Assembly: GCA_964583975.1 (NCBI GenBank)
Contig: CAZOXU010000005.1
Location: 2,034 to 66,033, forward strand
Direction of reading: 5' to 3'
Origin: an uncultured Planctomycetales bacterium
Lineage (GTDB): Bacteria > Omnitrophota > Gorgyraeia > Zapsychrales > Fredricksoniimonadaceae
DNA length: 64,000 nucleotides
The notes under the pieces: model-generated
Seen by the model: the letters and a program-made list of their open reading frames with translations, nothing else
Database searches by the model: none
What the model was told of the DNA's origin: nothing
Shown: piece after piece, positions 30,413-64,000 of the stretch
Layout of the letters: each line of letters starts with the position of its first letter
Numbering within the stretch: position 1 is the first letter of the stretch
Translations under genes and position numbers: made by a program

Positions 30413-33214
30413 TCAATCTCTCTGATTTCTTTGTGGGTCATCCACAAAAGGAATTTGTGGATCCAATATTTCCTCCAAAATAAAGCCCAGCGACCGAAGA
30501 CCTGCATCAATAGCTTGCTTAGAATCTTCCAAGCTATAACCTTTGATAAATTTCTCAATCTTGTTGGTCTTTAAATGGTAAAGGGCGGCATTAATAGGTA
30601 CATTTGGGTAAACTCCCTGTAAATAATAAAGATACAAAGGCATCTGGAAAGACAATAACTGGTCTCGGATAATTTCTCGACTTAAATGACCTTCAAGCAG
30701 TTCATCAAAACTCTTAGGGATTAATTCTTGTCCTCCCGTCTTATAATCCAAAACCAAAATACTACCATCCGTCATCTGGTCAACCCTATCCATACGATAT
30801 GTCAATCGCACCTGCTTATCTCCTAAAAAGGTTACATGATCAAACCTTCTTTCTAGGGCTAGGATAGTGGCCACCTCCTTATGGCAACGCAAAGCTTCAA
30901 CATCTAAAAAACGCTGCAATCTGGTTTCTAATACACTCTTAATTAAAAAGGCATCACTTCTTTGCCTACGGCCAAAGATTTCTTCAAATTTCCGGCGACT
31001 AACATTTAGAAAATATTTTCTAAACTCTTCATCCAAAATAGGTTTTTTGTTAATAAATGACTTAAAGGTATCTTCCAAAAGTTCATGCACAAAGTTTCCA
31101 ATATGCCTGGCTTCTGGCTCATCTAATAAATTATCTTGTTCCCTTAAACCCAAAACATAATTCTCATAAAATTCATAAGGGTTACGCAAATAGGTATTAA
31201 GACTAGAGGCTGAAAAACTCATAGTCTTTAAGAAATCAACCATGGCCTGCGTTTTGGGAATAATTTTTTGAGTAGAATTTAATTTGACCTGAAAACGACC
31301 TGATTCGACCGTAACCACATCGAGCTTCTGCGCCTTCTTCTCCTCTTCCCAAATCAATTCTTCAATAAAACGACTACGTTGTTTATCTGCCCGTTCCTGG
31401 TAAATCAAATGTACGTTTCGAGCAGAAGAAATCAAACGCATGAATCCATAACGTTGGATTTCTTCTTCAAGCTCAAGGCGATCCAAATTCAACTTAATCA
31501 TGATGTCTCTAGGGATTAAAGGCTCGTAGATATTGAGATTTGGCAAAATACCTTCATTCACATCCACCACAATGACATTTTCAAAACTTAAAGCACGCGT
31601 TTCAAAAAGACCCAAAATTTGCAAGCCTCGTAAAGGCGAGCCAGTAAAAGCTACCATTTGATTACTCAAAGTATCTTCTAGAATTCGAAACATTTCATGA
31701 GGTAAGAAAGACTGCTTAGCAAATTCACTGGCTGCAAGTTCTTGAGATAAGTTTTCCAGACTCAAAGCGATCCGATCATTAAAAGGATACTTTGACATAG
31801 AACCACCTTGTCTCATTAAAGACGTAAAATCACCCAATACTTGCGCTAAATCTCCAAAGCTAGCAGCCTTCTGCCATTGATAAAAAAGGTTCTGATGTAG
31901 AAATTTCAATGTTTCTTTTAAATTCTGTGGTGTTATATCAATATCTATAGCTTTAAGAGCAACCAAGCTTCGCTCAATCAATTTTTCTTCTTGAGCAAAA
32001 GCCTCAAGGTTTAGAAAAATCTGTCCGGAATATTGCGATTCAACCTGACCGGTTAAAATCTCTTCAATTGTATGGACCAATACCCTGACAACTTGAGCCC
32101 CTCCTTTTTCTAAATTCTGAACCAAAGGATGGCGCAGTACTCTTAAATAATCACGTGTATAATACAAATTTTTCTGCAGAGATTTCTGGGCCGCAAAGAT
32201 CTTTTCTAAAAGAGCATACAATGCGCTTCGTTTTAATGGATAACCCATTGAAATATTAAATTCTTTAACCTGGTCTGATAACAATGACAACAGTGGAAGA
32301 ATAAAATCGGTTTGAGGCAAAACAATGACAGTTCGCTCAGGCTGTGAAACTTTCTCTAAAATATTCTTAACCATAGCTGCTTGGGAATGAATATCAAAAG
32401 CTTTATGGATTTTTAACTTAAAATCCCCTTCAATAACCTTAGGCCCCTCTAAGATCTCTCCACCTAGCACAGACGAAATACGTTTAAGCGCGGGCCATCG
32501 GCGTTGATCACCTTGCATCATCAGCGTTGTGTTGGCATGCTTGTAACAATACTCAATAGTTTTCATCTCACTACGGTGCAAATAAAAGAAATTGCAAAAC
32601 AAAATTTCCTGCCAGCCACTTAAATCACAAGATGCAACCAATTGACTAGCTTTGGAATATTGGAAGCCTCTGGAAGTGATATTTTGTTGCTCCAACAATT
32701 GATGATACTCTCTTCTTAAAACAAACAAACTTTCAAGCAAACGACTAATATCTTTAGGAATATCAAAACCAATCTGTGCCTGAGCTTGTAAATTTTTAAG
32801 AATGTTCTGAGAAGTCAATTCTAAATCCAACTGCTCAATAAGCGCATGGATCTCCTTGGCCCATGGGAGAAAAGAACAGAAACGCTCTCTTCCTTTTAGA
32901 AGTTCGGGAGTATGTTTTAAAGCTAATTGATAAATCAGATAATAATGATCTAGTCCAGAAAGTGGTTGGGTTTCCTTCTGGCTCGCAACAATATGCGCCA
33001 TCCATTCATCGATAGTAAAAAAGGTTGGTGGGTAGAAAACTTTTTTTGACCTCGCAGCTAAAGCACGTTTTAGAAAAAGCGCAGGCCTTCGACCGCCAAA
33101 AATAACAGCCAGCTTGCGCAAATCTATCCCCTTCAAAATATAATTTTGATGGATATAGTCTGCCAAGTGATCAATAAAATCTTCTGTGAATGGGACAGTA
33201 ATTATTTTACTCAT
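30413..33214 (-). CDS. AddB-like subunit of a helicase-nuclease (PD-(D/E)XK nuclease, degenerate helicase fold)
   Basis: 933 aa. The C-terminal ILVLDYKTGG is the RecB-family nuclease motif. There is no Walker A at the N-terminus and no Cys cluster, so no Fe-S domain. It overlaps the addA-like gene by 8 nt. Confidence 0.65.
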   Translation of the reverse strand: MSKIITVPFTEDFIDHLADYIHQNYILKGIDLRKLAVIFGGRRPALFLKRALAARSKKVFYPPTFFTIDEWMAHIVASQKETQPLSGLDHYYLIYQLALKHTPELLKGRERFCSFLPWAKEIHALIEQLDLELTSQNILKNLQAQAQIGFDIPKDISRLLESLFVLRREYHQLLEQQNITSRGFQYSKASQLVASCDLSGWQEILFCNFFYLHRSEMKTIEYCYKHANTTLMMQGDQRRWPALKRISSVLGGEILEGPKVIEGDFKLKIHKAFDIHSQAAMVKNILEKVSQPERTVIVLPQTDFILPLLSLLSDQVKEFNISMGYPLKRSALYALLEKIFAAQKSLQKNLYYTRDYLRVLRHPLVQNLEKGGAQVVRVLVHTIEEILTGQVESQYSGQIFLNLEAFAQEEKLIERSLVALKAIDIDITPQNLKETLKFLHQNLFYQWQKAASFGDLAQVLGDFTSLMRQGGSMSKYPFNDRIALSLENLSQELAASEFAKQSFLPHEMFRILEDTLSNQMVAFTGSPLRGLQILGLFETRALSFENVIVVDVNEGILPNLNIYEPLIPRDIMIKLNLDRLELEEEIQRYGFMRLISSARNVHLIYQERADKQRSRFIEELIWEEEKKAQKLDVVTVESGRFQVKLNSTQKIIPKTQAMVDFLKTMSFSASSLNTYLRNPYEFYENYVLGLREQDNLLDEPEARHIGNFVHELLEDTFKSFINKKPILDEEFRKYFLNVSRRKFEEIFGRRQRSDAFLIKSVLETRLQRFLDVEALRCHKEVATILALERRFDHVTFLGDKQVRLTYRMDRVDQMTDGSILVLDYKTGGQELIPKSFDELLEGHLSREIIRDQLLSFQMPLYLYYLQGVYPNVPINAALYHLKTNKIEKFIKGYSLEDSKQAIDAGLRSLGFILEEILDPQIPFVDDPQRNQRD

Positions 33215-36200
33215 GTAAATAGACTAAAAATCCTTCCACCTTTAATTTAGGATAAAGCTGACCAATTAATTGTTGATATTCCTTCATTTGGCTTTGATGC
33301 ATCTGCTCTTCTATTCGACTGGTTTTAAAATCTACAATCCAAATCTTATCTTTAAAAACCATAACTCTATCTAAGCGTCGGGTGTCACCAAAGCGATTGA
33401 CAATTTCTTGTTCACAAAGCACCCCAACATCCGAGCTTATTTCAAATAATGGACACACATCAGACCTTACCAAAAATGTTGATAATTGCTTCGTATAAAA
33501 ACCCTCATCCAAACGGCCAAACTTTAACCTTGCTTCATCTACAACCTTTGCGACTACAGCCTCTATCTTCCCTTCAATACGAACAATCTTAGATAAGCAG
33601 TAGTGTAAGATCACACCCTGCTGGCGAATCTTAGCCTGCTGTGAACTTTCTTGAGCTAGCTCTTCTGTCAACTCAGCTACCCATCTTCGATCAACAGCCG
33701 TAGCTAGAACTGGCAAAGTCACTGCTGATTCAGGTTCTTTCTTATGAGCTATTTTTTGACCTAAAGAAAAGGAGGCTTCCTGAAACAAAAAGCCTGCCGG
33801 ATTGATACTATTAGCACTCCTTTGAGGAACCATGACATAAAGCTCACTAATGGCTCTGGTGAGGGCCACATAGACATTATTCAATTCAATAGCTAACGAA
33901 GCTTTATATTCATCTTCATAACGCTTTTTTAGAATTTCACTAAATCGGCCGTAGGTTTTCTTCAACCGAAGCATTCTTAAGCCCTCATCATCGACATCCA
34001 ACACATAGGCGAGCGCCTTATCAGAACTCTTAGATGTTTGTACGGTCATTTCTAAAAATGGAATAATCACAACTTCAAATTCCAATCCCTTGGCTTTATG
34101 AAGGGTCATGACCTTGATAGCTTCCTGAGAAGCAACGCTCACAAACCTTTCTTCCGTAGGTAAATTATCAAAATAATCAATAAAGCCTTCTAAGTCGCAA
34201 CTCGATTCTTCACGGCGCTTAATTAGTTCTAAAAAATGCATCAAGAAACCTTGAGCATCATGAAACTCATGCAAACGAAATTGGGCATAGATGCTGACAA
34301 CCAATTCATAAATAGGATAGATGCCCACCTGATTAAAGAAATCTTCCAGGCAATCTTTCCACACTTGCGAATAGCGTTCTTGAAATTGTTTATAAAGATA
34401 CGCCTGTGCGTGGGTCCGTCTCTTAGCGCGACATTCAAACAGAAAATCTCTTAATTGCTCTTGAGATAAACCACTGGCTTTAGGGAAGATCTCGCCTAAT
34501 AAAAATCGAGCGAAGTTTACATTATCAACGGGCGCGTTTAAAAAACGTAAGAACTCAACGATCTCATTGATCAAAGGATGGTTCTTAATATCACAACTTC
34601 TTTCAGACTGCGCATGGATCCCCTGACTTAAAAGCCAACCAGTCACCTCCTCTACCTGTCCATTGGTGCGTGTTAAAACAGCAATATCCTTTAAAGCATA
34701 ACGCTTTTGAACATCAGCAATGGTTTTAAGCAATTGCTGTCTAACAGACTCCTGACGTTCTTGTCGCCTTTTTCCTTCTATGAGATGGACCTGTACAAAA
34801 CCTCCTGACATGTCTTCTCTAATTTCTTGCTTCGAATGTTCAAAGGTCTTTTGGATCTCTTGAATATTTTCCTGATTAAAATAAACCTCTTCACCAGATT
34901 TGTCTTTTTCCGAGTAATGCTCCTGGCGTCTTACAAAGAAATCTTCTATATTTTTAGGACTAAACAAATAATTATTAAATTCCACAACAGCCTTACGACT
35001 ACGCCAATTCTTCAATAAAAAATCCCTGTTTAAAGGAGCGCTAGGGAACTGCTGCGGTAATTCATCAAATAAACGACTTTCGCCACCACGAAAAGAATAA
35101 ATTGCTTGTTTCTTATCGCCAACCACAAACAAAGATCCTTGAATAGAAAGAGCTTCTTGAATCATTAAAAATAGATTCTTCCACTGTGAGTCACTGGTAT
35201 CTTGAAATTCATCAATTAAATAATGGTGAAAACGGACAGCCAAGCGATAGTAAAGCTCACTGACACTAATTCCTTCCTCGATCAAGGCTGAAGCTTTCTT
35301 ATTGAGTTCTTGTAAGAATAAAATGTCATCTTGGGCACAAAGCCTGGCAAAGACCTCATTGACCTTTTGAAAAATCATGACATAAGGATTAAAAACTCCA
35401 TAGCTTTCTGCCAAACACAAATTTTTAATACATTCCCTGGCCTTAGCCCATTGCTGTTCTAAATCCTTAGAAATTTCTACCCCTTTATTGGCAGGAAACT
35501 GCTCGTAGGAGAAATACCGGCTCACATCATCTAAGTCAAACGATACAGGATGAGCTTCAAGGAATTTAGCGAGACCCTCTGTAAACTTCTTATTCATCGA
35601 AGGATCAGATAATGCTTGTATATTTTTGGCTATATCCAGAAATTCTTTTTTAGCTAGGTATAAATCCCTGCTATCAGCAGGAAAGATAATAAAAGACTTT
35701 TGGTAAGTGTTATATTCTCCAAAAAGCATGGTGAGGGTATCCATAAGGTCTTCCTTAGGAAACCATCCGCTTCTATTCTCCAAAAACAAATACTGATGTA
35801 CAAAATCGTCTAATAAGGCGCGGACCTTGGGATCATCCTGACTTAAAGCAATCCATTGGTCCAAGCTCTGTTGTAAATAATCCTGGCTGTTACGTTGAAT
35901 CTTAAAACGGGCTGATAGATTAATTTTAAACGCACAACCGGCCAGTAAAGTATTGATAAAACTATCAATGGTTTTGATGGAAAAGAAATGATAGTGGCGG
36001 ATCAAAGAATCCATAAGGCTAAAACTCAAGGTAGAAGCCTCGTGAGCTGAAATACCCAATGGATCAAGAAAAGCCTGCTTTTCTTGTGAATTAAGTCGAT
36101 TGAGTGCAATCTTCTTTAAAAACTGCAGCACCCTGGTTTTCATTTCAAAAGAAGCTTTATTAGTGAAGGTAATGGCAAGAATATTCTTAAAGCTTTGTGG

Positions 36201-36320
36201 ATTGTCCTTGGCTGTTTTAAGCAATAACTGGACATACCTCAAGGCCAGCGCATAGGTTTTGCCGCTACCAGCAGAAGCTTCGGTAATGCAAATCTCGGGA
36301 AAGTCAAACAATTGGGACAT
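33207..36320 (-). CDS. AddA/RecB-like UvrD-family helicase with C-terminal PD-(D/E)XK nuclease
   Basis: 1037 aa. Helicase motifs are I EASAGSGKT, II LIDEFQDTS, III VVGDKKQAIYSFRGG, and a late motif MTLHKAKGLEFEVVIIP. The C-terminal nuclease motif is IWIVDFKTSR. Confidence 0.8.
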   Translation of the reverse strand: MSQLFDFPEICITEASAGSGKTYALALRYVQLLLKTAKDNPQSFKNILAITFTNKASFEMKTRVLQFLKKIALNRLNSQEKQAFLDPLGISAHEASTLSFSLMDSLIRHYHFFSIKTIDSFINTLLAGCAFKINLSARFKIQRNSQDYLQQSLDQWIALSQDDPKVRALLDDFVHQYLFLENRSGWFPKEDLMDTLTMLFGEYNTYQKSFIIFPADSRDLYLAKKEFLDIAKNIQALSDPSMNKKFTEGLAKFLEAHPVSFDLDDVSRYFSYEQFPANKGVEISKDLEQQWAKARECIKNLCLAESYGVFNPYVMIFQKVNEVFARLCAQDDILFLQELNKKASALIEEGISVSELYYRLAVRFHHYLIDEFQDTSDSQWKNLFLMIQEALSIQGSLFVVGDKKQAIYSFRGGESRLFDELPQQFPSAPLNRDFLLKNWRSRKAVVEFNNYLFSPKNIEDFFVRRQEHYSEKDKSGEEVYFNQENIQEIQKTFEHSKQEIREDMSGGFVQVHLIEGKRRQERQESVRQQLLKTIADVQKRYALKDIAVLTRTNGQVEEVTGWLLSQGIHAQSERSCDIKNHPLINEIVEFLRFLNAPVDNVNFARFLLGEIFPKASGLSQEQLRDFLFECRAKRRTHAQAYLYKQFQERYSQVWKDCLEDFFNQVGIYPIYELVVSIYAQFRLHEFHDAQGFLMHFLELIKRREESSCDLEGFIDYFDNLPTEERFVSVASQEAIKVMTLHKAKGLEFEVVIIPFLEMTVQTSKSSDKALAYVLDVDDEGLRMLRLKKTYGRFSEILKKRYEDEYKASLAIELNNVYVALTRAISELYVMVPQRSANSINPAGFLFQEASFSLGQKIAHKKEPESAVTLPVLATAVDRRWVAELTEELAQESSQQAKIRQQGVILHYCLSKIVRIEGKIEAVVAKVVDEARLKFGRLDEGFYTKQLSTFLVRSDVCPLFEISSDVGVLCEQEIVNRFGDTRRLDRVMVFKDKIWIVDFKTSRIEEQMHQSQMKEYQQLIGQLYPKLKVEGFLVYLHE

Positions 36321-36326
36321 GAAATG

Positions 36327-37070
36327 CTATTTGTGAGCTTTGAAAATAGGATCTTCTAGAACTTCACGGATGATGGCAATTGAGGCATCCAAGGTGCTTT
36401 GCCCTGGCTTAACTCCCCAATCGGTAACATCTTTACCATATACTTCTAAATCTTCTAATAATTTGCTGCGTTGCTTTTCCGTGATGGCTAAAAGCTTACC
36501 TTTATCATTTGCATTATCTTGACTTAAAAGAACCTTGGTCATCAACGCTGAGGCCTTAATAACAGACTTATCTATTTCCTTACGTTGAAGCTCCAATTGA
36601 CGCAAGGAGTTACTAAACTCCTTCTCTTCAGCTACTTTAGGTTTTGCCTTAGTTTTATATTCCAGCCAATTCTGCCACAGATCTTTAGCTTTATCATTTA
36701 AGACTATTTCCTTATCACAAGCAATGATCACTAAATCAGACACTTTCCGCATCAATTGATTGGAAGATGTTAAATATTTATTCAGATAACCTTTAATAAT
36801 TCTCAGATTAGCATTATCTAAAACATAGTATTCGATATTACCTCGAATCATCTTTAATTCATCTTTGGGGAACTTTTTCTTAGGGGGATTTTGACTCCAT
36901 CGATTCTCAATGGTTCGAAAATAACTGAGAGCCGAAATATAACTGCGGGCAAATTCATACTTATTACCATCAGGATTGTTCTTTTTAAATTCATTCTCTG
37001 CAGCCAAAACATTGGAAGCACCAATGAATATTAAAAATCCAATAAGAACATTCAAAATGATTTTATTCAT
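36327..37070 (-). CDS. Small secreted protein of unknown function, abutting the giant gene
   Basis: The track ORF starts at 37106. The internal start MNKIILNVLIGFLIFIGASNVLA at 37070 is a classic signal peptide. The rest is Lys/Glu-rich and alpha-helical. The gene sits between the giant gene's stop at 37107 and the addA-like start at 36320. Confidence 0.5.
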   Translation of the reverse strand: MNKIILNVLIGFLIFIGASNVLAAENEFKKNNPDGNKYEFARSYISALSYFRTIENRWSQNPPKKKFPKDELKMIRGNIEYYVLDNANLRIIKGYLNKYLTSSNQLMRKVSDLVIIACDKEIVLNDKAKDLWQNWLEYKTKAKPKVAEEKEFSNSLRQLELQRKEIDKSVIKASALMTKVLLSQDNANDKGKLLAITEKQRSKLLEDLEVYGKDVTDWGVKPGQSTLDASIAIIREVLEDPIFKAHK

Positions 37071-37106
37071 GTGTGCTATTGTAACGTCCACAAAGGTCTT
37101 GGGCAA

Positions 37107-40100
37107 TTAAATCTTTGCTAATGCTTGCGCTTCTTTACTGATTCCAAGTAATGGAAATGGGCTTAGGATGGGTGCGATATCGATAATGACAGGTGAAAAA
37201 CCTTGAAACTCTCCTTGAAGCAATTCATCGAGTTGGGCTGGATCAAAATCAACCTTAATCGTCTTGCCAGTACGATTAATATTAATTTGATTTAAATCAA
37301 TACCACCTAGATCTTGTGATTTATTAGATCGGTTAAGCATTGCTTGATCATTTCCTTCATATAGTTGAGATTCTTCGCCATAACGAATACCCCTTAAAGC
37401 ATCTTCATACATTTGCTTACGTCTTAACCATTCTAAAGCCCCACTTGCTCGATTATGAGCTTCAACTAAATCCATTTCGGGCGTTGATTTACTTAAGAAC
37501 ATAATATCAATCAACTCTTTAGCCTTGATTACCTCATTAGAATTAAATGATTGCAAAAACCAAACAAGCGCCTTGACCAACATTTCTTCCCTAATATTGT
37601 GAGCCACCCTACGTTCATTTAAATCATCTATTGTCAAACTTTTCGAATTACCAATAAGATCCCGTGCAAACATTATGGTATCTGCCATTTGAGCTATCTC
37701 CCTAGCAGTTGCTTTGGAAGGCAATAACGACTTAGCTACTTCAAAATCCGAGACATCATTAGAAGACATCGCCCTGTCATCCCCCATTGCACTATTAAGC
37801 TTATTAAATACTTTTTGCGCTTTAATATAGGCAATATTAATAGCTGTATAAATATCATTGTTAGATCTCCTATATCCATAAATCAAATAAATAATTTCTA
37901 TGGCCTTTAAAACTTCATCATTAATCTTTGAATCCAAAAACCTAAGAAGAGCTTTTACTAAATAAGTTTCATTTGTATCATAAACTTCTAATTTAGATTC
38001 TATGTCTTTCACGGATATAATTTGATCTTTAGAGTCTACCCATTCTCGGGCAAGTCTTAAGGCATTTCCAAACCTGTAAATATTCTGTGGATTATTTTCT
38101 AGAGGTAAAAAATCTTTAGCATAATCATAAAAAGCACCTAATGCATCATTCAAAGAGGGAATCTGGCCCAATTTCTTAATACGCAATGATTTAGTATCCC
38201 AAGGAACTATTTTCGAAGGCTCCCCCTCAACAGAAGAATCAATAGCTCTAGAAGCTTTCTGGTACATTGACCTTAATAATGCACTGCGCTCATCTTTCTT
38301 TGTTTCTAAATAAATGCCATAAATTAAAGATATGGCTCGTGATTTTTCATCATCATTTCCAAATCTTAAAAACCAATCCAAAGCAATGATTAACAAATTA
38401 CGATCAAACTTTGAAGCTTTAATATCTGAATCTATTTCTTCAATTGAAAAGTTTTTTTGTTCTCTAATATATCTGTGCGCCAGATTTAAAGCGTCTCCTA
38501 ATTGAGTTAATGGTATCTCTTTATACTTGTTATCTTGCTCTTGGATCTTTTGAGCTAACTCATAACCATTGAAAACTGTTGGAGATGTTGAATCTGATTT
38601 AGAATTCATAGCTTGATCTGCAGGCACGGTGGGCTCGCTGTCCCATATACGAATTGTTTCATCAACCTTACTCTGATCAATCCATCGATCCCACTTGCAG
38701 CTCATAAGCGCTTGGCGAATGGCCCCATCTCGATCTAATGGTTTTAATCTTAAAACATATTCTTGAATAATCAAACGAGCTTGTTCTCGTACTCGATTAA
38801 TTCTTTCATTTTGAGGATTCATGGAAGCAATCAAATAGGGTACCGATCTTTCTAACTCCACAACTGACATTGTTTTTAAACTCAACATGCGAACATGGTC
38901 ATTTTGCTCAACACCATTAAATCCATGATTATTTCTTTCATCCATATAGGCATGTTGTTCCAACAATTTCCAAAATTCTCCTTTATCAAGCAAGTCTTGT
39001 CGCAATGATAATATTAACAATGCCCCTTGTCGGGCTTTCGAATAATCTCTTCCTGTCGTAGATAGTATTTCTAACAAAGCTTGAACATTCAAATCCCTAT
39101 TCACTAAAGCTCTTGCCTTGTCTCTAATATTATTATTAGCATATTCATCAGGAAATTCTTGTGCCAGCTCTTTAGCTTCCGATGATAAAGCACCCTCTTT
39201 TATAATATCCTTAGCAACTCCTTTGTCTATACCTGCACCTGACTTCCCATCCCACAAACCTATAAATCTTCGAATCCTATCTTTATCAATTTTAAAATCA
39301 TCTACTAGCGCGCTACCAAACGCACTTCTAAAACGTCCCTGCCTATCTAATTCTCTAATTTCTGCAATATATTGAATGGCTATATCTATAACTACATTTC
39401 TCACCTCTACTGACAACTCACTCTTCCAATAAAATGATTCAACCAAATAAGGAATTGCTCTACGTAAATCTAAAGCGGCCATGGTTCTTAAACTTTGAAC
39501 CCTTACAAAATTATTTCGTTCAATGCCTTTAATCCTCATTGAATTATATTGATTTTCATACGCATGTTGCACCAAGTAAGGCCAAAGATCATCCTTTTTG
39601 ATTAAATCTTTACGTAATGTAAAAATAAACAAAACTGCTTCTCGAGCCGGAGCATATTTTCGATCTGTCGTTGCTAAAACCTCCAACAATACCTTTAACT
39701 CTAGCGTTCCTTGCACAATCTCCCGCGCCTTACTATAAATTTGCTCTCCTTTCCAATGACTTAGAAACTCATCGGCAAATGCTTGCGCTTCTAGTGACAA
39801 GACTGGCTTGGAATCTGGCTGGGAAGTCATAGCATGATCTGAAACATCTGGCATTGTTGCAGAAATATTAGCCCATCGATTTACTAATTCTAAGACCCTA
39901 TCTTTATCTATCCATTGATCATATTTATAGGACAATCTTAATTGTTTCAATAATTCACCTTCTGAATCTAATCTTATTATCCAATTAAGCTTACCAGATA
40001 TAATTCTCAATATTCTTGCACGAACATCTACTATTCTTTCATTTCTAGGGTTTAATGAATGAATTAAATACGGAATTGACCTTTTTAAATCCAGCTCAGC

Positions 40101-42170
40101 CATTGTTCTTATACTTTGTAATCGAACATAATTATTCTGTTCAATACCTGGAATTCTTTTATCATTTGTATCATCACGATAGGCATGTTCTTCAAGCAAT
40201 GGCCACAAGATTTTATTCGGAATTAAATTCTTTCGAATAGATAAAATGATTAAAACCGCCTGTCTAGCCCTAGAACATCTTGCTGTTCTTGTTGCTAAAA
40301 CTTCCAACAAAAGATCTTTCTCATAATACCTTTGAGATATATCTTGTGCCTTTTTAATAACATCTTGGACTAAAAAGCTTACTGGAAACTCCTCTACAAA
40401 TTTTCTAGCTCCTTCAGATAAATAATCATCTTCGTTTAACTGGGAAGTCATGGCGGAATCTTGTGATAGTTCTTGAGCAATTTGGAGAATTCGAGGTAAA
40501 TTTCGTTCTAATTTAAGTTGAATTTCTAAGACTTTCTCGGCCATTTCTTGAGTAAAACCACCATCAATTATAAATTTAGCCGCATCCCAAAGATTCACTA
40601 ATCCAGCATTATTATCTTCTAATTTAGGTCTATTTGGCATTCGTTGAATAATTTTATGCGCCCAATCTAATAAATTTCTTAATTTAGAATAATTACTAAA
40701 CTGATCTAAAACATTTCTTAATGTTTCTGCACCTTGATCTATATTAACTTTTTTATCTGTAATTTCTGAAATCTGAAGAAAAGCCAATTCAAAGCTTACA
40801 ATTGGTTCAATAATTAAATGATTAATCCCTGTAGAATTTAAATTAGCTTTTGATTGTAAATAGCCAAACAAGCCCTTGTGATAGACGTCTTTTATTTCTT
40901 CTATTAATTTCACACCCTCTTTCTGTAAATTATCTCTCTTTGCTTTAGAAATCATTGCTACATCTGTTGCAAAATTATTTACTAATTTCACCTGCAAAGA
41001 CATCATCGCCCCATCTGCTTTAATATCAGCCTGTCTTCCATTTCTTTCTACAGGAATCTTCATCAACGTCAGTCCACCAGAGAAATACTTCCGTGGTCCT
41101 GCTGATGCTGCACCAGATCCAACGTCAGTTGGATCTGGGTCCTTAATGTAATTAAACACACCCTTTTTATAGGCTTGCAGATAGCGCTCGTATATCTGTT
41201 GTTTTATCGCAGGGTCGTTAAGATTAACACCTGCCACCTTGTTCTTATTGGTATACACTGCATCTAAAAGACCATTTTGAATGGTTTCCTTGTACCATTT
41301 AGCTAAGATCAATGCATCGTAGATTTGACGAAGTGGGGCAAAGTTCTTTCCCTGATTGACTTCTTTGGTGATTTCGGGAATGACAATCTCACGGATGATT
41401 TGGCTTCCGATTTGATTGGATTCGCGTACGGGCGGGGTTTCCTCGCCCTTATTAGGGCTGGGTGACCCAGCCCGTACATTATTCTTTGACATCGCCAAAT
41501 AATCCTCATCCAACATGACCTTCAAGGTTGATTTGGTCACGTAGGCCGCTGGTGGAACATTTCCGCCAGAGGCGGATCGACCTGCGGCCGACTCATACAC
41601 CTGCGCTTGATCTGGTAGAATCCATACCTTGTTAAAAGTATTGACTGGAACATCCGTGGTGCCAAATTGCTCTTGGGCTTTTTTGTAGACTCTACTCCAA
41701 AACTCCTTGCCTAAATCCTTCTCTGGGTAAATCAGCGAGGCAGTCAATTGCTTAAGGATATAGTCTTGGGCTAATAGATCACGACCTAGCTCGGTTTCAC
41801 CTAAAGACTGGGTAGTCATGCGGTCTTTTTCATAAGGTGAAAGATTGACCCATAAATCACCTTCTGGGATGGTTAGGCCAGCTAAGAAGTACTTCACTAA
41901 TCTTTCTGCCTCTTCTTGATTAGGGCTGCTAGCTGCCCCTACCGAGCCAGTGTCTACGATAAATTGAAATTCCAGAGGTTTCTGGGGATTAACAATAATA
42001 CCTTTTAAAGCTAGGGGTGTAAAAGCTGCTGATGGCCCTACCATGACTCCTGGCTCGGGCAGCTGTAGTAGGGGCACGGCATGCCGTGCTCCTACATCCG
42101 CATAGGAATACTGTAAGTTGCTGCAAATAAATGACATGCAGACTATAGAAGAAATCAAACGTTTGAACAT
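37107..42170 (-). CDS. Giant secreted modular protein (1687 aa): signal peptide, conserved N-terminal module, 3 x ~200-aa HEAT-like tandem repeats, further helical modules, conserved C-terminal ~75-aa module
   Basis: The signal peptide is MFKRLISSIVCMSFICSNLQYSYA. The N-terminal 365 aa and the last 75 aa are clearly homologous to the partial ORF at 60607..64000. Three internal repeats share ATTxRxYxxARxAxLxIxxLRxxLxxxxxWxxLxxHAYxxxxNxxxIxGxExNxxVRxQSxRTMAxLDLxRxIPYL. Confidence 0.85.
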   Translation of the reverse strand: MFKRLISSIVCMSFICSNLQYSYADVGARHAVPLLQLPEPGVMVGPSAAFTPLALKGIIVNPQKPLEFQFIVDTGSVGAASSPNQEEAERLVKYFLAGLTIPEGDLWVNLSPYEKDRMTTQSLGETELGRDLLAQDYILKQLTASLIYPEKDLGKEFWSRVYKKAQEQFGTTDVPVNTFNKVWILPDQAQVYESAAGRSASGGNVPPAAYVTKSTLKVMLDEDYLAMSKNNVRAGSPSPNKGEETPPVRESNQIGSQIIREIVIPEITKEVNQGKNFAPLRQIYDALILAKWYKETIQNGLLDAVYTNKNKVAGVNLNDPAIKQQIYERYLQAYKKGVFNYIKDPDPTDVGSGAASAGPRKYFSGGLTLMKIPVERNGRQADIKADGAMMSLQVKLVNNFATDVAMISKAKRDNLQKEGVKLIEEIKDVYHKGLFGYLQSKANLNSTGINHLIIEPIVSFELAFLQISEITDKKVNIDQGAETLRNVLDQFSNYSKLRNLLDWAHKIIQRMPNRPKLEDNNAGLVNLWDAAKFIIDGGFTQEMAEKVLEIQLKLERNLPRILQIAQELSQDSAMTSQLNEDDYLSEGARKFVEEFPVSFLVQDVIKKAQDISQRYYEKDLLLEVLATRTARCSRARQAVLIILSIRKNLIPNKILWPLLEEHAYRDDTNDKRIPGIEQNNYVRLQSIRTMAELDLKRSIPYLIHSLNPRNERIVDVRARILRIISGKLNWIIRLDSEGELLKQLRLSYKYDQWIDKDRVLELVNRWANISATMPDVSDHAMTSQPDSKPVLSLEAQAFADEFLSHWKGEQIYSKAREIVQGTLELKVLLEVLATTDRKYAPAREAVLFIFTLRKDLIKKDDLWPYLVQHAYENQYNSMRIKGIERNNFVRVQSLRTMAALDLRRAIPYLVESFYWKSELSVEVRNVVIDIAIQYIAEIRELDRQGRFRSAFGSALVDDFKIDKDRIRRFIGLWDGKSGAGIDKGVAKDIIKEGALSSEAKELAQEFPDEYANNNIRDKARALVNRDLNVQALLEILSTTGRDYSKARQGALLILSLRQDLLDKGEFWKLLEQHAYMDERNNHGFNGVEQNDHVRMLSLKTMSVVELERSVPYLIASMNPQNERINRVREQARLIIQEYVLRLKPLDRDGAIRQALMSCKWDRWIDQSKVDETIRIWDSEPTVPADQAMNSKSDSTSPTVFNGYELAQKIQEQDNKYKEIPLTQLGDALNLAHRYIREQKNFSIEEIDSDIKASKFDRNLLIIALDWFLRFGNDDEKSRAISLIYGIYLETKKDERSALLRSMYQKASRAIDSSVEGEPSKIVPWDTKSLRIKKLGQIPSLNDALGAFYDYAKDFLPLENNPQNIYRFGNALRLAREWVDSKDQIISVKDIESKLEVYDTNETYLVKALLRFLDSKINDEVLKAIEIIYLIYGYRRSNNDIYTAINIAYIKAQKVFNKLNSAMGDDRAMSSNDVSDFEVAKSLLPSKATAREIAQMADTIMFARDLIGNSKSLTIDDLNERRVAHNIREEMLVKALVWFLQSFNSNEVIKAKELIDIMFLSKSTPEMDLVEAHNRASGALEWLRRKQMYEDALRGIRYGEESQLYEGNDQAMLNRSNKSQDLGGIDLNQININRTGKTIKVDFDPAQLDELLQGEFQGFSPVIIDIAPILSPFPLLGISKEAQALAKI
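38600..40450 (-). repeat. Three divergent tandem coding repeats (~600 nt / ~200 aa each) inside the giant gene
   Basis: Protein-level alignment of three consecutive segments beginning ...FVEEFPVSFLVQDVIKKAQ, ...FADEFLSHWKGEQIYSKAR and ...LAQEFPDEYANNNIRDKAR; each continues with LLEVLATxxRxYxxAR...HAY...NER...W(I/D)xKDR. DNA-level identity is low, so the duplication is old. Coordinates are approximate. Confidence 0.6.
41424..41478. repeat. GC-rich nested palindromic mini-element embedded in-frame in the giant ORF
   Basis: gtacgggcggggtttcctcgcccttattagggctgggtgacccagcccgtac. The outer arms gtacgggc/gcccgtac are perfect. The inner hairpin gggctgggtgacccagccc is nearly identical to an intergenic copy at 59262-59284. 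It encodes the low-complexity linker AGSPSPNKGEETPPVRE. Confidence 0.55.
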
Positions 42171-56921: not shown

Positions 56922-56992
56922 GAATGCATTATAACAAATTAGGGACAGCTCCCTATTTTTTATTAAAGAAAAATAAGGCGCTGTCCCTAATT

Positions 56993-57421
56993 TTATTTAC
57001 TTGAACGAATCATGAGGATTGGGATATCGGTGTTGTGCCTTAAGGTGTCTGCCACAGAACCTAAAATAACATCTTTCACAAAACCATGACCGTGGGTCGC
57101 CATAGCAATCAAATCACAGCCTTCTTTGTTAGCAGCTTCTAAGATAGCCTCAGCAGGCTCTTTGCCCTGTAGAAGCATCGACTTAACTTTAAAACCTTCT
57201 TTGGCGAAACGCTGATCAACTTTGTCTAGATATTGCTGATCTTTTTTGATTTCCTCAGAATCAGCTAAATTAAGCTCATTTTGTAAACGTGCACCAAAAC
57301 CATCAGCCACATGTACCAAAATAAGCTCAGCTTTGCTTAACTTAGCCAAAGGACGTATATGCTCTAAGATCGTTTCATCGGTTAAAGAGTTATCCAAAGG
57401 TATTAATATCTTTTTATACAT
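56993..57421 (-). CDS. Universal stress protein (UspA family)
   Basis: 142 aa with a C-terminal ATP-binding-type motif (MATHGHGFVKDVILGSVADTLRH). Confidence 0.8.
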   Translation of the reverse strand: MYKKILIPLDNSLTDETILEHIRPLAKLSKAELILVHVADGFGARLQNELNLADSEEIKKDQQYLDKVDQRFAKEGFKVKSMLLQGKEPAEAILEAANKEGCDLIAMATHGHGFVKDVILGSVADTLRHNTDIPILMIRSSK

Positions 57422-57422
57422 C

Positions 57423-58769
57423 CTAGCCCCCTAACCATGAACGAATAGTTTGAAATAATAAATAAGCATTTAATCCACCAATAATGACCGTAATAGTCCA
57501 AGCCAACACCTTGAGCCAAGTAGGATTAACAAATTGATCCATCTTGAGTCGATCAGACGTAAACAATACCAACGGTACTACTGCAAAACTTAATTGTAAA
57601 GACAAAACCACCTGACTTAAAACCAAAAGGCTTCCTACCCCTTTTTCACCATACATGGCAGCCACAATAACAGCTGGCACGATCGCTACCGAGCGGGTCA
57701 AGATACGGCGCATCCAGGGACGTAAACGAATGTTTAAAAATCCTTCCATGACAATTTGACCGGCTAAGGTACCTGTGAGGGTCGAATTTTGGCCTGAAGC
57801 GAGCAAGGCCACGGCAAACAAGGTACTGGCAAATGTAGCTCCAAGTACAGGAGTCAGAAGTTTATAAGCATCGTTAATATCAGCCACATCTTGATGTCCT
57901 GTACCATGAAAGGCTGCTGCGCTTAAGATTAAAATAGCTGCATTGATAAAAAAGGCGCACAGCAAAGCTGCAGTTGAATCAATAGTGGCAAAACGGATCG
58001 CCATTTTCTTACCTGCATCATTGCGTTCATAAGCTCGTGTTTGCACAATGCTAGAGTGCAAATACAAATTGTGGGGCATGACCGTGGCTCCCAAAATACC
58101 GATAGCGATATATAACATTTGGGGATTGGTGACAATCTCAGGCTTGGGGATAAGCCCTGTTAAAACATCCGGTAAAAACGGATGCGAGATAGCCATTTCA
58201 TAAGCAAAGCAACCACCAATGAGCACAATTAAACCCGCTACCAAGCATTCCAAAACGCGAAAACCCTTATGCTGCAAAAATAGGATGATCATAACATCAG
58301 TAGCCGTAATCAAAATACCAACCACCAGGGGAATACCAAACAGTAAATTTAAGGCAATGGCTGAACCGATAACTTCAGCTAAATCGCATGCTGCAATAGC
58401 AATTTCACAAAGAACCCATAAAAACATCGACACAGGTTTAGAATAATGATCGCGGCAAGCCTGGGCAAGGTCGCGGCCAGTTACAATCCCTAGTTTTAAA
58501 GCTAAATGCTGCAGAATAATGGCCATAAAATTAGAAATTAAGATGACTGATAATAAAGTGTATCCAAATTGAGCACCACCTGCTAAATCGGTCGCCCAAT
58601 TACCTGGATCCATGTAACCAACAGCCACCATCAATCCAGGACCAACAAAAGCCATCATCTTACGCCAAAATGTAGCTGTTACAGGCACATGCACTGAAGC
58701 ATGAACTTCGGGCAAACTTAGTTGTATGGCGTCACGCCGCCAAGGCTTTCTCATAAACTCTCCTGACAT
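57423..58769 (-). CDS. mntH: Nramp-family divalent metal (Mn2+/Fe2+) transporter
   Basis: 448 aa with 11-12 TM helices. The Nramp motifs DPGN ([20 protein letters not shown]) and MPH ([14 protein letters not shown]) are both present. Confidence 0.9.
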
Positions 58770-59197
58770 TGACTACAAATTCCATAAAAATGCATTTCAT
58801 GACCAATAATTTTAAATCCTTCTTTCTCCAGAAGCGGACGATACCGACTCTCCTCATCTAAATCAGGAAACTCGATAAACTTCTGGCAGCGGATGCATTT
58901 GGCATGATGATGCTTTTGTTCATCATAAAGATGCTCATAATGCTGATGCTTATCTCCAAAGGCTGTACCTCGAATAACTCCCGACTCAAGAATTTCATGC
59001 AAGGTGCGATAAACGGTTGCTCTGGACACTGCTGGTTTTAATCGGCTGCAAATCTTGGCCAATTCCTCAGCTGTAAAATGACCATGCTTATTCATGACCT
59101 GGTCAAACACCACCTGCCGGCCACGACTCAAACGCAAACCCTCTTCTTTCAAATAAGCCTCATACTTGAGCCTTTCGCCCTGAATTGTTTTCTTCAT
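58751..59197 (-). CDS. fur: Fur-family metalloregulator (likely Mn/Fe-responsive, co-transcribed with mntH)
   Basis: The track ORF begins at a TTG at 59233. The ATG at 59197 ([10 protein letters not shown]...) is likelier. It has an [13 protein letters not shown], and [13 protein letters not shown] metal-binding motifs. Its 3' end overlaps the mntH start by 19 nt. Confidence 0.8.
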
Positions 59198-59231
59198 AAT
59201 GAGACCGTGTATCCTTATAAAATTAAAAAGC

Positions 59232-59285
59232 AAGGGGTTAATTTTATTAACCCCTTAAAAGTACGGGCTGGGTTACCCAGCCCCT
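59232..59285. terminator. Tandem hairpins between the redoxin gene and fur: AT/GC terminator hairpin plus GC-rich palindromic element
   Basis: aaggggttaa-tttta-ttaacccctt forms a perfect 10-bp stem at 59232-59256, followed by a T-run on the minus strand. gggctgggttacccagccc (59265-59283) is the second hairpin and copies the element at 41455-41473. Confidence 0.6.
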
Positions 59286-59289
59286 ACAA

Positions 59290-59856
59290 TCACGCTCTCC
59301 ACTTGATTGAACAACCCATCGAAGGCTTTTGCTGAGCATCAATAGGCCGACCTGCCGCCATATTGTTCATAGCTTCTTTAAGCTCTTCACGCGTGACCTT
59401 TGCTTCTTCTTTCCAATTATCATCGATACGGCCATGATAAACCAATTTACCTTCTTTATTAAAAAGATAGATATCCGGTGTGCACTGAGCTTTAAAGGCA
59501 TCCGCGGTCTTTTGCGTCTCATCAACTAAATAAGGAAATTCAATACCCAACTCTTTGATTTTCACGATCATTTTATCAGGAGCATCATCAGGAAAATCTG
59601 GATTGATATTAGGATTAATGGCAACGGTATTAACTCTCATCCCTAAGCCATACTTGGCTAGCGCAATGACACGCGGCCACACGGCAATGGCATAAGGACA
59701 GTGATTGCAAGTGAATACCACCAATAGTCCTCTTTCACCAAAAAGCTCTTTTCCTTTATAAGCCCTGCCAAATGGATCTTGAAGTTCAAAATCTGGCATC
59801 GATGTGCCCAAAGGAATTTTGATAGACTCTAATAAAGCCATTTGATTACCTCCCAA
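59290..59856 (-). CDS. Thioredoxin-fold redoxin (TlpA/AhpC-TSA-like thiol-disulfide oxidoreductase)
   Basis: 188 aa. LVVFTCNHCPYA supplies the CxxC in thioredoxin-fold context. Confidence 0.7.
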   Translation of the reverse strand: MGGNQMALLESIKIPLGTSMPDFELQDPFGRAYKGKELFGERGLLVVFTCNHCPYAIAVWPRVIALAKYGLGMRVNTVAINPNINPDFPDDAPDKMIVKIKELGIEFPYLVDETQKTADAFKAQCTPDIYLFNKEGKLVYHGRIDDNWKEEAKVTREELKEAMNNMAAGRPIDAQQKPSMGCSIKWRA

Positions 59857-59968
59857 TTGTAATGTAATATCTGTTTGTCATTCCCGAATGTTTTTATCGG
59901 GAATCTAGTACCTGGATCCCCGATAAAAACATTCGAGGAAGACCCTCATTATAAAAGGATGCATACCT

Positions 59969-63600: not shown

Positions 63601-64000
63601 TGCCATGGCAGAATCTGTTGTTGTGCGCATTGCTTTTCCGTATTCATTCTTGGTCCCACCCGAAAAATACTTCCTTGGCATTGGCTGATGCGTGAATTTA
63701 TCGGTGTCTTCTTTAATATAGTTAAATACACCCTTCTTATAAGCTTTGAGGTATTGCTGATAGATCGCTTCGTTGTTCTTTGGGTCTTGGTTAATTCCAT
63801 TAACCTTGGCTTTATCTGCATAAATCTTCCCTAATAAAGATTCTTTCAAAGCACGTTTATACCAGGCTGCTAAAATCATTCCGCTATACACCTGACGAAG
63901 CATGGCAAAATTCTTGCCTTCATTGACTTCTTTTTCAAGGGCTGGAAGAACGATTTCACGGACGATTTGGGAGCCGATTTGATTGGTTTCCGTAGGGGCA
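60607..64000 (-). CDS. Paralogue of the giant secreted modular protein, partial (N-terminus beyond window end)
   Basis: The minus-strand ORF stays open from 64000 down to the stop at 60607; the track's Met at 63903 is internal. The residues read ...TETNQIGSQIVREIVLPALEKEVNEGKNFAM-LRQVYSGMILAAWYKR...KYFSGG. These align to ...NQIGSQIIREIVIPEITKEVNQGKNFAPLRQIYDALILAKWYKE...KYFSGG of the 1687-aa protein. The last ~75 aa also align (GGIDFN...PIIIDIKP against GGIDLN...PVIIDIAP). Confidence 0.8.
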   Translation of the reverse strand, partial: APTETNQIGSQIVREIVLPALEKEVNEGKNFAMLRQVYSGMILAAWYKRALKESLLGKIYADKAKVNGINQDPKNNEAIYQQYLKAYKKGVFNYIKEDTDKFTHQPMPRKYFSGGTKNEYGKAMRTTTDSAMARPIMITEAGKLDAAEAVLAEKSEADAAMVVRANDKLVLEEEGIYSVKIPNLGSKVELENKKNRVILKGLNTKIFASAQDLQVRDSFIKASNILDTISIEFDNIELVREEDDKLILLRDGGAYYVSDKDVGFVWNEKVKSQVLEAVQSLRQMEDSMKSSIGSLRLILYKGDFIDSDDFQKKFAERINTFLLNTLDLGFFKFKPENIKIERDVIRFLGIRVASINVGLVKVEDYSKEEFANALADYLTRVFFSDMAMATAVSRLDNLSSNLEVKSLPKQVRIWVNKNRGAIDVLLNELVAKDYVKMYISKDKLESFQEIVRKLKEYPVLTRKLLDEYSMQILSMFSDVGPQAGTFKKRFRDFLQEDEELQKMISEIDSNVFQVTLANELLRLKNREIVLVSQLRAMNNFEASGITRVSIKADLLNVRDRIDAYLRGDAAMSSGETAKAMRQAIEDLRDSNKKDFEGKVTDALLEEIERQLNTPEEFMASIAHFVYAYLYDNYQINMLAQLNSELKFENDQFLWFGVPIARVSSDKKGISVSLLTPSNVKLFTDALSNYLEKSMSEIASTSGSIPVEPASNADSAMNGGETRENWEIKIMSFVKGLNKRVISNKDDLASKDKLIRAVRLLLSVARDDVQYLTREIPDNQLDIQAEDVRNFDVLRARIKVWSVFGGANERAIEETRKYEEILNEFEKLQSVEHGLQYTQYHSIAIRDDGDMGGAATVLYQNDPIILRIGTFTLGLHTNAKGQLVLLDSNLKELGEIAIGDISTIGFTKKDSKVVIETRIEGLAQMSRFLIQLWALKNKDNTLNITFRLQDVTKNVFIVMRHVEQDSQKVINYNHRQIFDLMNLSRISGKYIRLDYLSEEGMIFNLGRIDNPDKGPQSVFYFVKSNKLYPIDGQQIPSNIAEAVSRYNQNTNQNPDGAMRVADQNFNKGGIDFNAANLNLQIKRDGAGVPLPISQQDLENIHIEGLVPIIIDIKPAVSLPMFSQLQESTAKV

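Follow-up and report, generated by a model that had tools for sequence, protein, structure and literature searches.

In a 64,000-nucleotide stretch of contig CAZOXU010000005.1 (hereafter designated the window), which derives from a Candidatus Omnitrophota genome, a short GC-rich palindrome occurs once directly behind a redoxin gene and once within a giant gene. We conclude that these elements probably belong to the superfamily of repetitive extragenic palindromes (REPs) tagged with GTAG, the former as a single unit and the latter as a dimer inserted into a permissive loop of the encoded protein. The phenomenon is already known, and the elements in the window are a new example of it in Omnitrophota. 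An initial annotation had proposed that the palindrome behaves like a REP or a MITE (miniature inverted-repeat transposable element); this proposal is supported by the anatomy of the copies, which is that of GTAG REPs with the coding copy as a head-head dimer (PMC3733652), and by the dispersal of the same 27-mer in more than 100 loci of other genomes.

The coding element (Table 1) reads in full GTAC GGGCGGGG TTT CCTCGCCC TTATTA GGGCTGGG TGA CCCAGCCC GTAC and consists of two hairpin units, A and B, that are inverted repeats of each other with 18 of 23 positions matching by hand comparison. GTAC stands at each outer end only and never inside, which is the pattern expected of a head-head dimer; we read the coding element as two REP units of the GTAG class joined head to head. 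The GC-rich palindrome was indeed found in frame in the giant gene, as first annotated, within the minus-strand open reading frame (ORF) 37107-42170, with its extent corrected from 55 bp at 41424-41478 to 52 bp at 41426-41477. The palindromic arms of that annotation likewise stand, and its scheme of outer arms around an inner hairpin is better read as two inverted hairpin units. In the frame of the ORF the element is translated as VRAGSPSPNKGEETPPVR, confirming the Pro/Ser/Gly linker already noted, and three of its six frames are free of stop codons (by hand from the sequence). Its G+C content (65%, hand-counted) compares with 39% for the window. The RNA of a 63-nt coding stretch folds with -40.1 kcal/mol (z = -6.5 versus shuffles), and the minimum free energy fold of the dimer is one long hairpin.

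The intergenic unit starts 2 nt past the redoxin stop codon (59290-59292), between two minus-strand genes, and reads GTAG...GTAC on the transcribed minus strand. The second copy of the initial annotation is thus real, its coordinates (59262-59284) being one base off and too short to hold the CTAC tail; the single loop difference reported between the copies was also confirmed, the 23 bases being otherwise identical. Folded as RNA, the intergenic copy reached between -17.7 and -22.8 kcal/mol, with z values of -4.4 to -5.1, so that both copies are far stabler than shuffled sequences, and the REP unit itself scores as terminator-like. Directly after it follows the conventional terminator noted earlier, with an AT-rich hairpin at 59231-59257 and a T-run. 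The start of fur is likely the ATG at 59197, because the TTG at 59233 called by the ORF tool would overlap this terminator.

Table 1 Coordinates of the palindromic elements in the window and of the genes around them.
Feature	Position	Strand	Description
Host (giant) gene	37107-42170	minus	1687 aa; signal peptide and ~370-aa N-terminal domain specific to Omnitrophota
Coding palindrome	41426-41477	minus	52 bp, in frame within ORF 37107-42170
Coding element, unit A	41426-41448		GTAC GGGCGGGG TTT CCTCGCCC
Coding element, spacer	41449-41454		TTATTA, 6 bp
Coding element, unit B	41455-41477		GGGCTGGG TGA CCCAGCCC GTAC
Degenerate GTAG-headed palindrome GTAGGGGCAGCTAGCAGCCCTAAT	41919-41942	minus	Encodes VGAASSPN, loop B
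Second GTAG-headed palindrome GTAGGAGCACGGCATGCCGTGCCCCTAC	42068-42095	minus	Encodes VGARHAVPL just past the signal peptide (loop A)
fur gene	58751-59197	minus	Downstream of the intergenic copy
Conventional intrinsic terminator	59221-59257	minus	12-bp AT-rich stem, then CTTTTTAATT; directly downstream of the REP unit
Single REP unit	59261-59287	minus	27 bp, GTAC GGGCTGGG TTA CCCAGCCC CTAC
AhpC/redoxin gene	59290-59856	minus	Upstream of the intergenic copy
Paralogue of the giant gene	60607 to beyond 64000		Same domain family
GTAGGGGCA	63992-64000	minus	Last nine visible bases of the paralogue; position matching the element start in the giant gene

The origin of the linker was examined in an alignment of 120 homologues. 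The closest homologues of the N-terminal domain, with 64-68% identity (P0002-P0004, P0006, P0007 and others), have nothing at the linker position, and filled and empty sites align cleanly as DNA, with the flanks well conserved on both sides. Deletion of 48 nt reconstructs LAMSKNNVRESNQIGSQ, which at 17 aa equals the shortest linker among 80 homologues and retains the Val-Arg found in P0006, P0007, P0010 and P0022. Because this deletion restores a minimal linker with Val-Arg, the 3' GTAC of the coding element is probably made up of host Val-Arg codons, and the boundaries of the insertion would then enclose a net insert of 48 nt (16 codons) with GTAC on both sides. These comparisons indicate that the coding copy is an insertion into the giant gene, as the initial annotation had supposed, rather than a linker held by all orthologues.

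Insertions at this site are not confined to the window. The N-terminal domain of the giant gene product is common to more than 1300 proteins, and the named proteins that match its N-terminal 399 aa come almost all from metagenome-assembled genomes (MAGs) of Candidatus Omnitrophota. In 80 Omnitrophota loci (949 kb), the DNA between the conserved anchors LKVMLDEDY and IVREIVIPE encodes linkers of 17-50 aa, and the long ones (>=28 aa, n = 37) fold with a median z of -2.7 versus shuffles, compared with -0.8 for the short ones (<=26 aa, n = 43; Mann-Whitney p = 1.6e-5). The inserts come from at least seven unrelated palindromic repeat families. The loop is occupied by GTAG...CTAC head-head dimers of 56 bp in locus L151 and 57 bp in locus L118 and, in L148, by one unit that has the stem of the window element (GTAGGGGCTGGGCATGCCCAGCCCGTAC); further families are represented by ATTCCCGCGAAAGCGGGAAT (translated as VIPAKAGI), GTCATCCTGAGCGAAGCGAAGGATC... 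(VILSEAKDL), CCCTCCCC..GGGGAGGG, CCCCGAATG..ATCGGGG, GGGGACATGGCTTTAGCCGTGTCCCC and a repeat common to L133 and L187. Copies of these repeats are also met in other genes and between genes, and the presence of an element differs even between paralogues of 84-87% identity (L118 versus L125; L158 versus L191). This is a loop that repeatedly accepts palindromic elements, and the earlier suggestion that such elements seed linkers gains support from these other members of the family.

Moreover, when insertions of >=6 aa were mapped on a profile of 370 states for 96 paralogues, the linker site (state 221) carried one in 31 paralogues, followed by states 71 (13 paralogues), 323 (8), 299/300 (6), 25 (4) and 191 (the window gene alone). 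In an AlphaFold model (pLDDT 65, pTM 0.60), the hotspots checked fall in loops between secondary-structure elements, with residues 233-251, at pLDDT < 50, placed between two helices; the linker site is therein predicted to be a permissive surface loop. A scan for perfect GC-rich hairpins, which is unbiased by repeat family, gave 2.9 hairpins per 10 kb in the N-terminal domain. The corresponding values are 3.2 for intergenic DNA, 0.6 for the remaining parts of the family proteins and 0.7 for other coding DNA, so that the domain is as dense in hairpins as intergenic DNA and exceeds other coding DNA about fourfold. A census of named repeats by location was excluded from the enrichment claims, its patterns having come from the loop inserts themselves.

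We regard this hotspot loop in a large Omnitrophota-specific family as the most interesting result. It has a small-scale precedent in recB, where different REPs occupy the same site in Xanthomonas campestris and X. oryzae (PMC3733652). The likeness lies in unrelated REPs at about the same position of homologous genes; here, in contrast, the effect extends to several loops of a single domain, to some 30% of the 96 paralogues and to no fewer than seven repeat families.

The distribution of the unit outside the window was examined by scanning genome contigs (one genome per species) for its 19-mer core, all figures referring to the matches listed. The core occurs in at least 116 loci, mostly of Candidatus Poribacteria, several of whose genomes have three to five loci each; other carriers are Desulfobacca, Spirochaetia, Chloroflexia and Melainabacteria MAGs and one unclassified MAG. 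Of 118 occurrences, 105 have a tag at one end or both, 67 of them the exact GTAG...CTAC, and the 13 untagged ones resemble chance matches. Since the genomes with untagged matches are for the most part GC-rich, the tag belongs to the unit, which is the 27-bp palindrome GTAGGGGCTGGGTNACCCAGCCCCTAC. As many as 31 of the 105 tagged copies lie within stop-free frames of >=200 codons, and intragenic residence is therefore common for the 27-bp unit. A tail-tail dimer with a 20-bp stem was found in L185 (3742-3792; GGTTTGGAACCCGCCCCTAC aacacaaattc GTAGGGGCGGGTTCCAAACC), within a region called coding by a crude mask. A search of the window against Rfam gave no match at the gathering threshold, and the element is thus not a curated RNA family; in the literature that was searched, nothing was found on REPs in Poribacteria or Omnitrophota.

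The elements resemble GTAG REPs in anatomy, arrangement and location. The unit of 27 bp has a perfect 8-bp stem with seven G-C pairs and a 3-nt loop; dimers are head-head in the window (6-bp spacer), L151 and L118 and tail-tail in L185; the intergenic copy lies 2 nt behind the 3' end of an ORF between genes of the same direction; intragenic copies are in frame and often dimers of ~20 aa; and some families are common to distant taxa. Opitutus terrae belongs to the Planctomycetes-Verrucomicrobia-Chlamydiae group, in which Omnitrophota is usually placed too. GTAG-tagged REPs are known from eight phyla, with units of 20-40 bp, 6-13-bp stems, 2-3-nt loops and head-head dimers carrying the tags outside, and intragenic ones have been reported, in greatest number in Opitutus terrae; dimers or groups that encode 20-30 aa make up more than half of these (PMC3733652). 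Their typical place is behind an ORF, at <20 bp from its 3' end, and preferably where the neighbouring genes are unidirectional or convergent (PMC3733652, Di Nocera, De Gregorio and Rocco 2013). Likewise, the group-3 REP of Stenotrophomonas maltophilia (REP-Sm) has an 8-bp perfect stem and a 3-nt loop, with GTAG directly before it (PMC8266576, Corneloup et al. 2021). An Omnitrophota host and strong clustering in the loops of one protein family have not been described previously for this class.

Two other systems deserve comparison. REPINs, reportedly described by Bertels and Rainey in 2011, are REP doublets that form hairpins, the doublet being taken as the mobile unit. The coding element shares with them two inverted REP units around a short spacer that fold as one long hairpin, but at 52 bp with a 6-bp spacer it is shorter than the REPINs of Pseudomonas and lies within a gene. 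The Rickettsia palindromic elements (RPEs), said to have been reported by Ogata et al. in 2000, are palindromic selfish DNA in frame in coding genes of Rickettsia, tolerated in surface-exposed, non-essential segments, and as an in-frame palindromic insert in a gene the window element behaves like them. RPE-1 is roughly 100-150 bp long and is not known outside Rickettsia; the window element, with 52 bp, a GTAG-type tag and an Omnitrophota host, is not a member. In the survey of GTAG REPs, RPE-4 and RPE-6 carry CGTC tags, not GTAG, and RPE-1 appears only as a 'longer palindromic insertion' (PMC3733652).

Under the GTAG-REP reading, the coding dimer would have entered the gene as DNA and survived there in a permissive surface loop, with an open frame and a net length divisible by three (48 nt), and would now encode a Pro/Ser/Gly-rich linker of 16-18 aa. 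Mobilization is presumed to have been provided in trans by a REP-associated tyrosine transposase (RAYT; TnpA-REP, a Y1 HUH transposase) acting on single-stranded hairpins. A group-3 REP preceded by GTAG is cleaved by its own RAYT, which leaves a GTAC mutant uncleaved, and in REPtron Mb GTAC redirects cleavage to different sites (PMC8266576). Because both its tags read GTAC, not GTAG, the coding copy is probably immobile now. The intergenic copy would sit where transcribed REPs usually sit, just behind a gene, and most likely serves as a 3' hairpin that stabilizes the mRNA or aids termination, with the true terminator as backup.

Several observations weigh against the assignment to GTAG REPs. 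The tag of a canonical REP is unpaired and stands at one end only, whereas the single units here are tagged at both ends and the tags pair with each other; three of the four tags in the window read GTAC, which is not among the degenerate forms of PMC3733652. The strict GTAG class numbers only eight copies in ~1 Mb of Omnitrophota DNA, a density far under the abundance of classic REPs. The nearest homologues with an empty site are only 64-68% identical, the boundaries of the insertion having been drawn from these and not from a strain pair, and the structure model is of moderate confidence only (pLDDT 65). Furthermore, neither the window nor the related loci, which total ~1.9 Mb, showed a RAYT-like ORF: regular-expression searches for the Y..NP motif, alone or with the HUH motif, found none in the window or the 196 loci, nor did the same DNA contain a small RAYT-like ORF flanked by GTAG heads. 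Such fragments leave room for a RAYT elsewhere, because RAYTs are usually single-copy; their genes are typically flanked by REPs. The two GTAG-flanked ORFs that came up as candidates were rejected, one being assigned by eye as similar to ribosomal protein L20 and the other as TonB-like.

This missing RAYT, together with the existence of REP classes without a dedicated transposase (PMC3733652), would also suit a MITE-like or otherwise non-autonomous element that is moved by a non-RAYT transposase, for example a cut-and-paste enzyme that recognizes the terminal inverted repeats and duplicates a GTAC target, or that is spread by recombination or gene conversion between copies. On either side of the 48-nt net insert stands GTAC, a 4-bp direct repeat with the look of a target-site duplication, and the whole dimer is an inverted repeat, as in a MITE; but GTAC belongs to the palindrome, so that the apparent duplication may be trivial, and no flanking direct repeat was found at the intergenic copy. 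No parent insertion sequence element for a MITE was seen either. A longer composite repeat could be marked by the motif AAATAATTA/TAATTATTT, which lies <=70 nt from about a quarter of the tagged copies listed, mainly in Poribacteria. Since the GTAG tag and the stem and loop lengths match RAYT substrates, we consider this explanation rather unlikely.

With regard to that motif, it accompanies the 27-bp palindrome in 25 of the 105 tagged copies listed (among L001-L116, in Poribacteria loci; for example L021 at 5744, L058 at 3943 and L084 at 2377), and the flanks of the Poribacteria copies look alike by eye (...TAATTATTTGCACAC...GTAG..CTAC...GTGTAAACAT...). The flanks and the motif together suggest a composite, MITE-like element around the REP.

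Alternatively, the hairpin in the gene might be under selection for some function instead of being tolerated selfish DNA: its mRNA structure could make ribosomes pause at a domain boundary, or it could be a processing site or supply a linker peptide that the protein needs. Its very stable fold (-40 kcal/mol), the structured inserts at the same loop in about a third of the paralogues and the apparent one at the same place in the window paralogue would be in keeping with this. However, the inserts come from at least seven unrelated families and range from 0 to >30 aa, many close homologues have none, the encoded peptides show no conservation, and the same repeats occur in intergenic DNA and other genes, which together make selection of this kind very unlikely. 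Finally, a coincidental likeness of two GC-rich hairpins, or a convergence of terminator-like stems, could draw on there being just two full copies in 64 kb, the intergenic one scoring as a terminator, but it is effectively refuted and scarcely credible, as the core GGGCTGGGTNACCCAGCCC has two matches in the window against 0.01 expected (<=3 mismatches permitted) that differ in a single loop base, the tagged 27-mer is dispersed in >100 loci elsewhere, and related units stand at the homologous loops of L148, L151 and L118.

A wider proposal, to which we assign a low probability, is that exposed loops of this secreted, highly paralogous, Omnitrophota-specific domain act as landing pads that repeatedly capture REPs of many families, at a density like that of intergenic DNA and with transfer of REPs across phyla; integration could then be directed by sequence, for example at GTAC. 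If so, selfish DNA would regularly supply the surface proteins of these host-dependent nanobacteria with variation in length and sequence, and the near-identical 27-bp REP in Omnitrophota, Poribacteria, Desulfobacca, Spirochaetia and Chloroflexi MAGs would suggest cross-phylum transfer together with its transposase.

None of these results overturns current understanding. With the GTAG-REP assignment, the range of GTAG-type REPs and of proteins 'decorated' in frame by them comes to include Candidatus Omnitrophota, for which metagenomes are almost the sole source of knowledge. A practical warning follows for Pro/Ser/Gly-rich or odd segments of these proteins, such as VGAG..P, VIPAKAGI, VILSEAKDL and PLxGEG: they are translated repeats, not functional motifs, and make aligned sequences look more divergent than they are. 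In the hotspot loops, nature has in effect tested where a protein fold tolerates insertions of 16-30 aa and, with the unit present in several phyla, the system could serve to study how REPs and their transposases spread.

Further palindromes were found in the giant gene itself. The window contains four GTAGGGGC/GCCCCTAC heads against ~0.7 expected from base composition (own estimate), and two of them belong to further palindromes in this gene that share one reading frame. The one in loop B is probably a decayed copy, because it causes no net change of length against homologues. L148 carries a VGARHAMPL unit at loop B, the counterpart of which lies at loop A here, and one REP subfamily therefore landed in different loops in different lineages. 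By reading the translations, the frame GTA GGG GC. is used six times to one, these cases being too few to judge non-randomness. The giant gene and its paralogue share 71% nucleotide identity over 134 nt (repeat D1), which ends exactly at the element boundary, and GTAGGGGCA in the paralogue is, by its position, probably the head of another copy cut by the window end. The tally for the 64 kb is thus two full copies, one partial copy at the window end and two related copies.

An 11-aa insertion, GRSASGGNVPP (41549-41569), is unique to the window gene among the 96 paralogues; it corresponds to profile state 191, for which the turn of a beta-hairpin is predicted, and contains an 8-bp hairpin, CTGGTGGAACATTTCCGCCAG, of which no other copies were found in the window and the related loci. 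At the linker loop of L157 (3962), a VIPAKAGIQ repeat is present that appears interrupted by additional sequence in L142/L143 (2329-2430; 85% identical), giving VIPAPTGALGQAKAGIQ, which looks like a nested event.

The N-terminal domain, with the motifs WVNLSPYE and NTFNKVWI, is often encoded by two paralogues per contig (the window and loci L117-L196). It matched no Pfam family, and a PDB fold search with its model gave no match at E < 0.5. It is fused to diverse C-terminal parts, and the Pfam domains listed for a few homologues (NUDIX, HAD, ankyrin, HEAT and HPr) fall in these parts.

Downstream of the giant gene, beyond one ORF (36327-37106), lies an AddAB-like ORF pair (30413-36320) that encodes a helicase of the UvrD type (1037 aa) together with a PD-(D/E)XK nuclease (933 aa). 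Repair genes of this kind often hold intragenic REPs (PMC3733652); none were seen in the pair of the window.

Upstream of the redoxin gene, a 67-bp inverted pair of a different family (GTCATTCCCGAATGTTTTTATCGGGAATC; 59877-59943), with 32-nt arms that are 84% complementary and 3 nt apart, lies in the 5' untranslated region, ahead of the start codon and behind a sigma-70 promoter that matches perfectly at 12/12 positions (59975-59948, minus strand). This family also occurs in frame at the linker loop of L176, L174, L196, L178 and L140. Another inverted repeat, at 56936-56993 (AAATTAGGGACAGCTCCCTATTTTT / AAAAATAAGGCGCTGTCCCTAATTT; 25 nt, 92% complementary, arms 8 nt apart), is located where two minus-strand ORFs leave a gap and resembles a bidirectional terminator.

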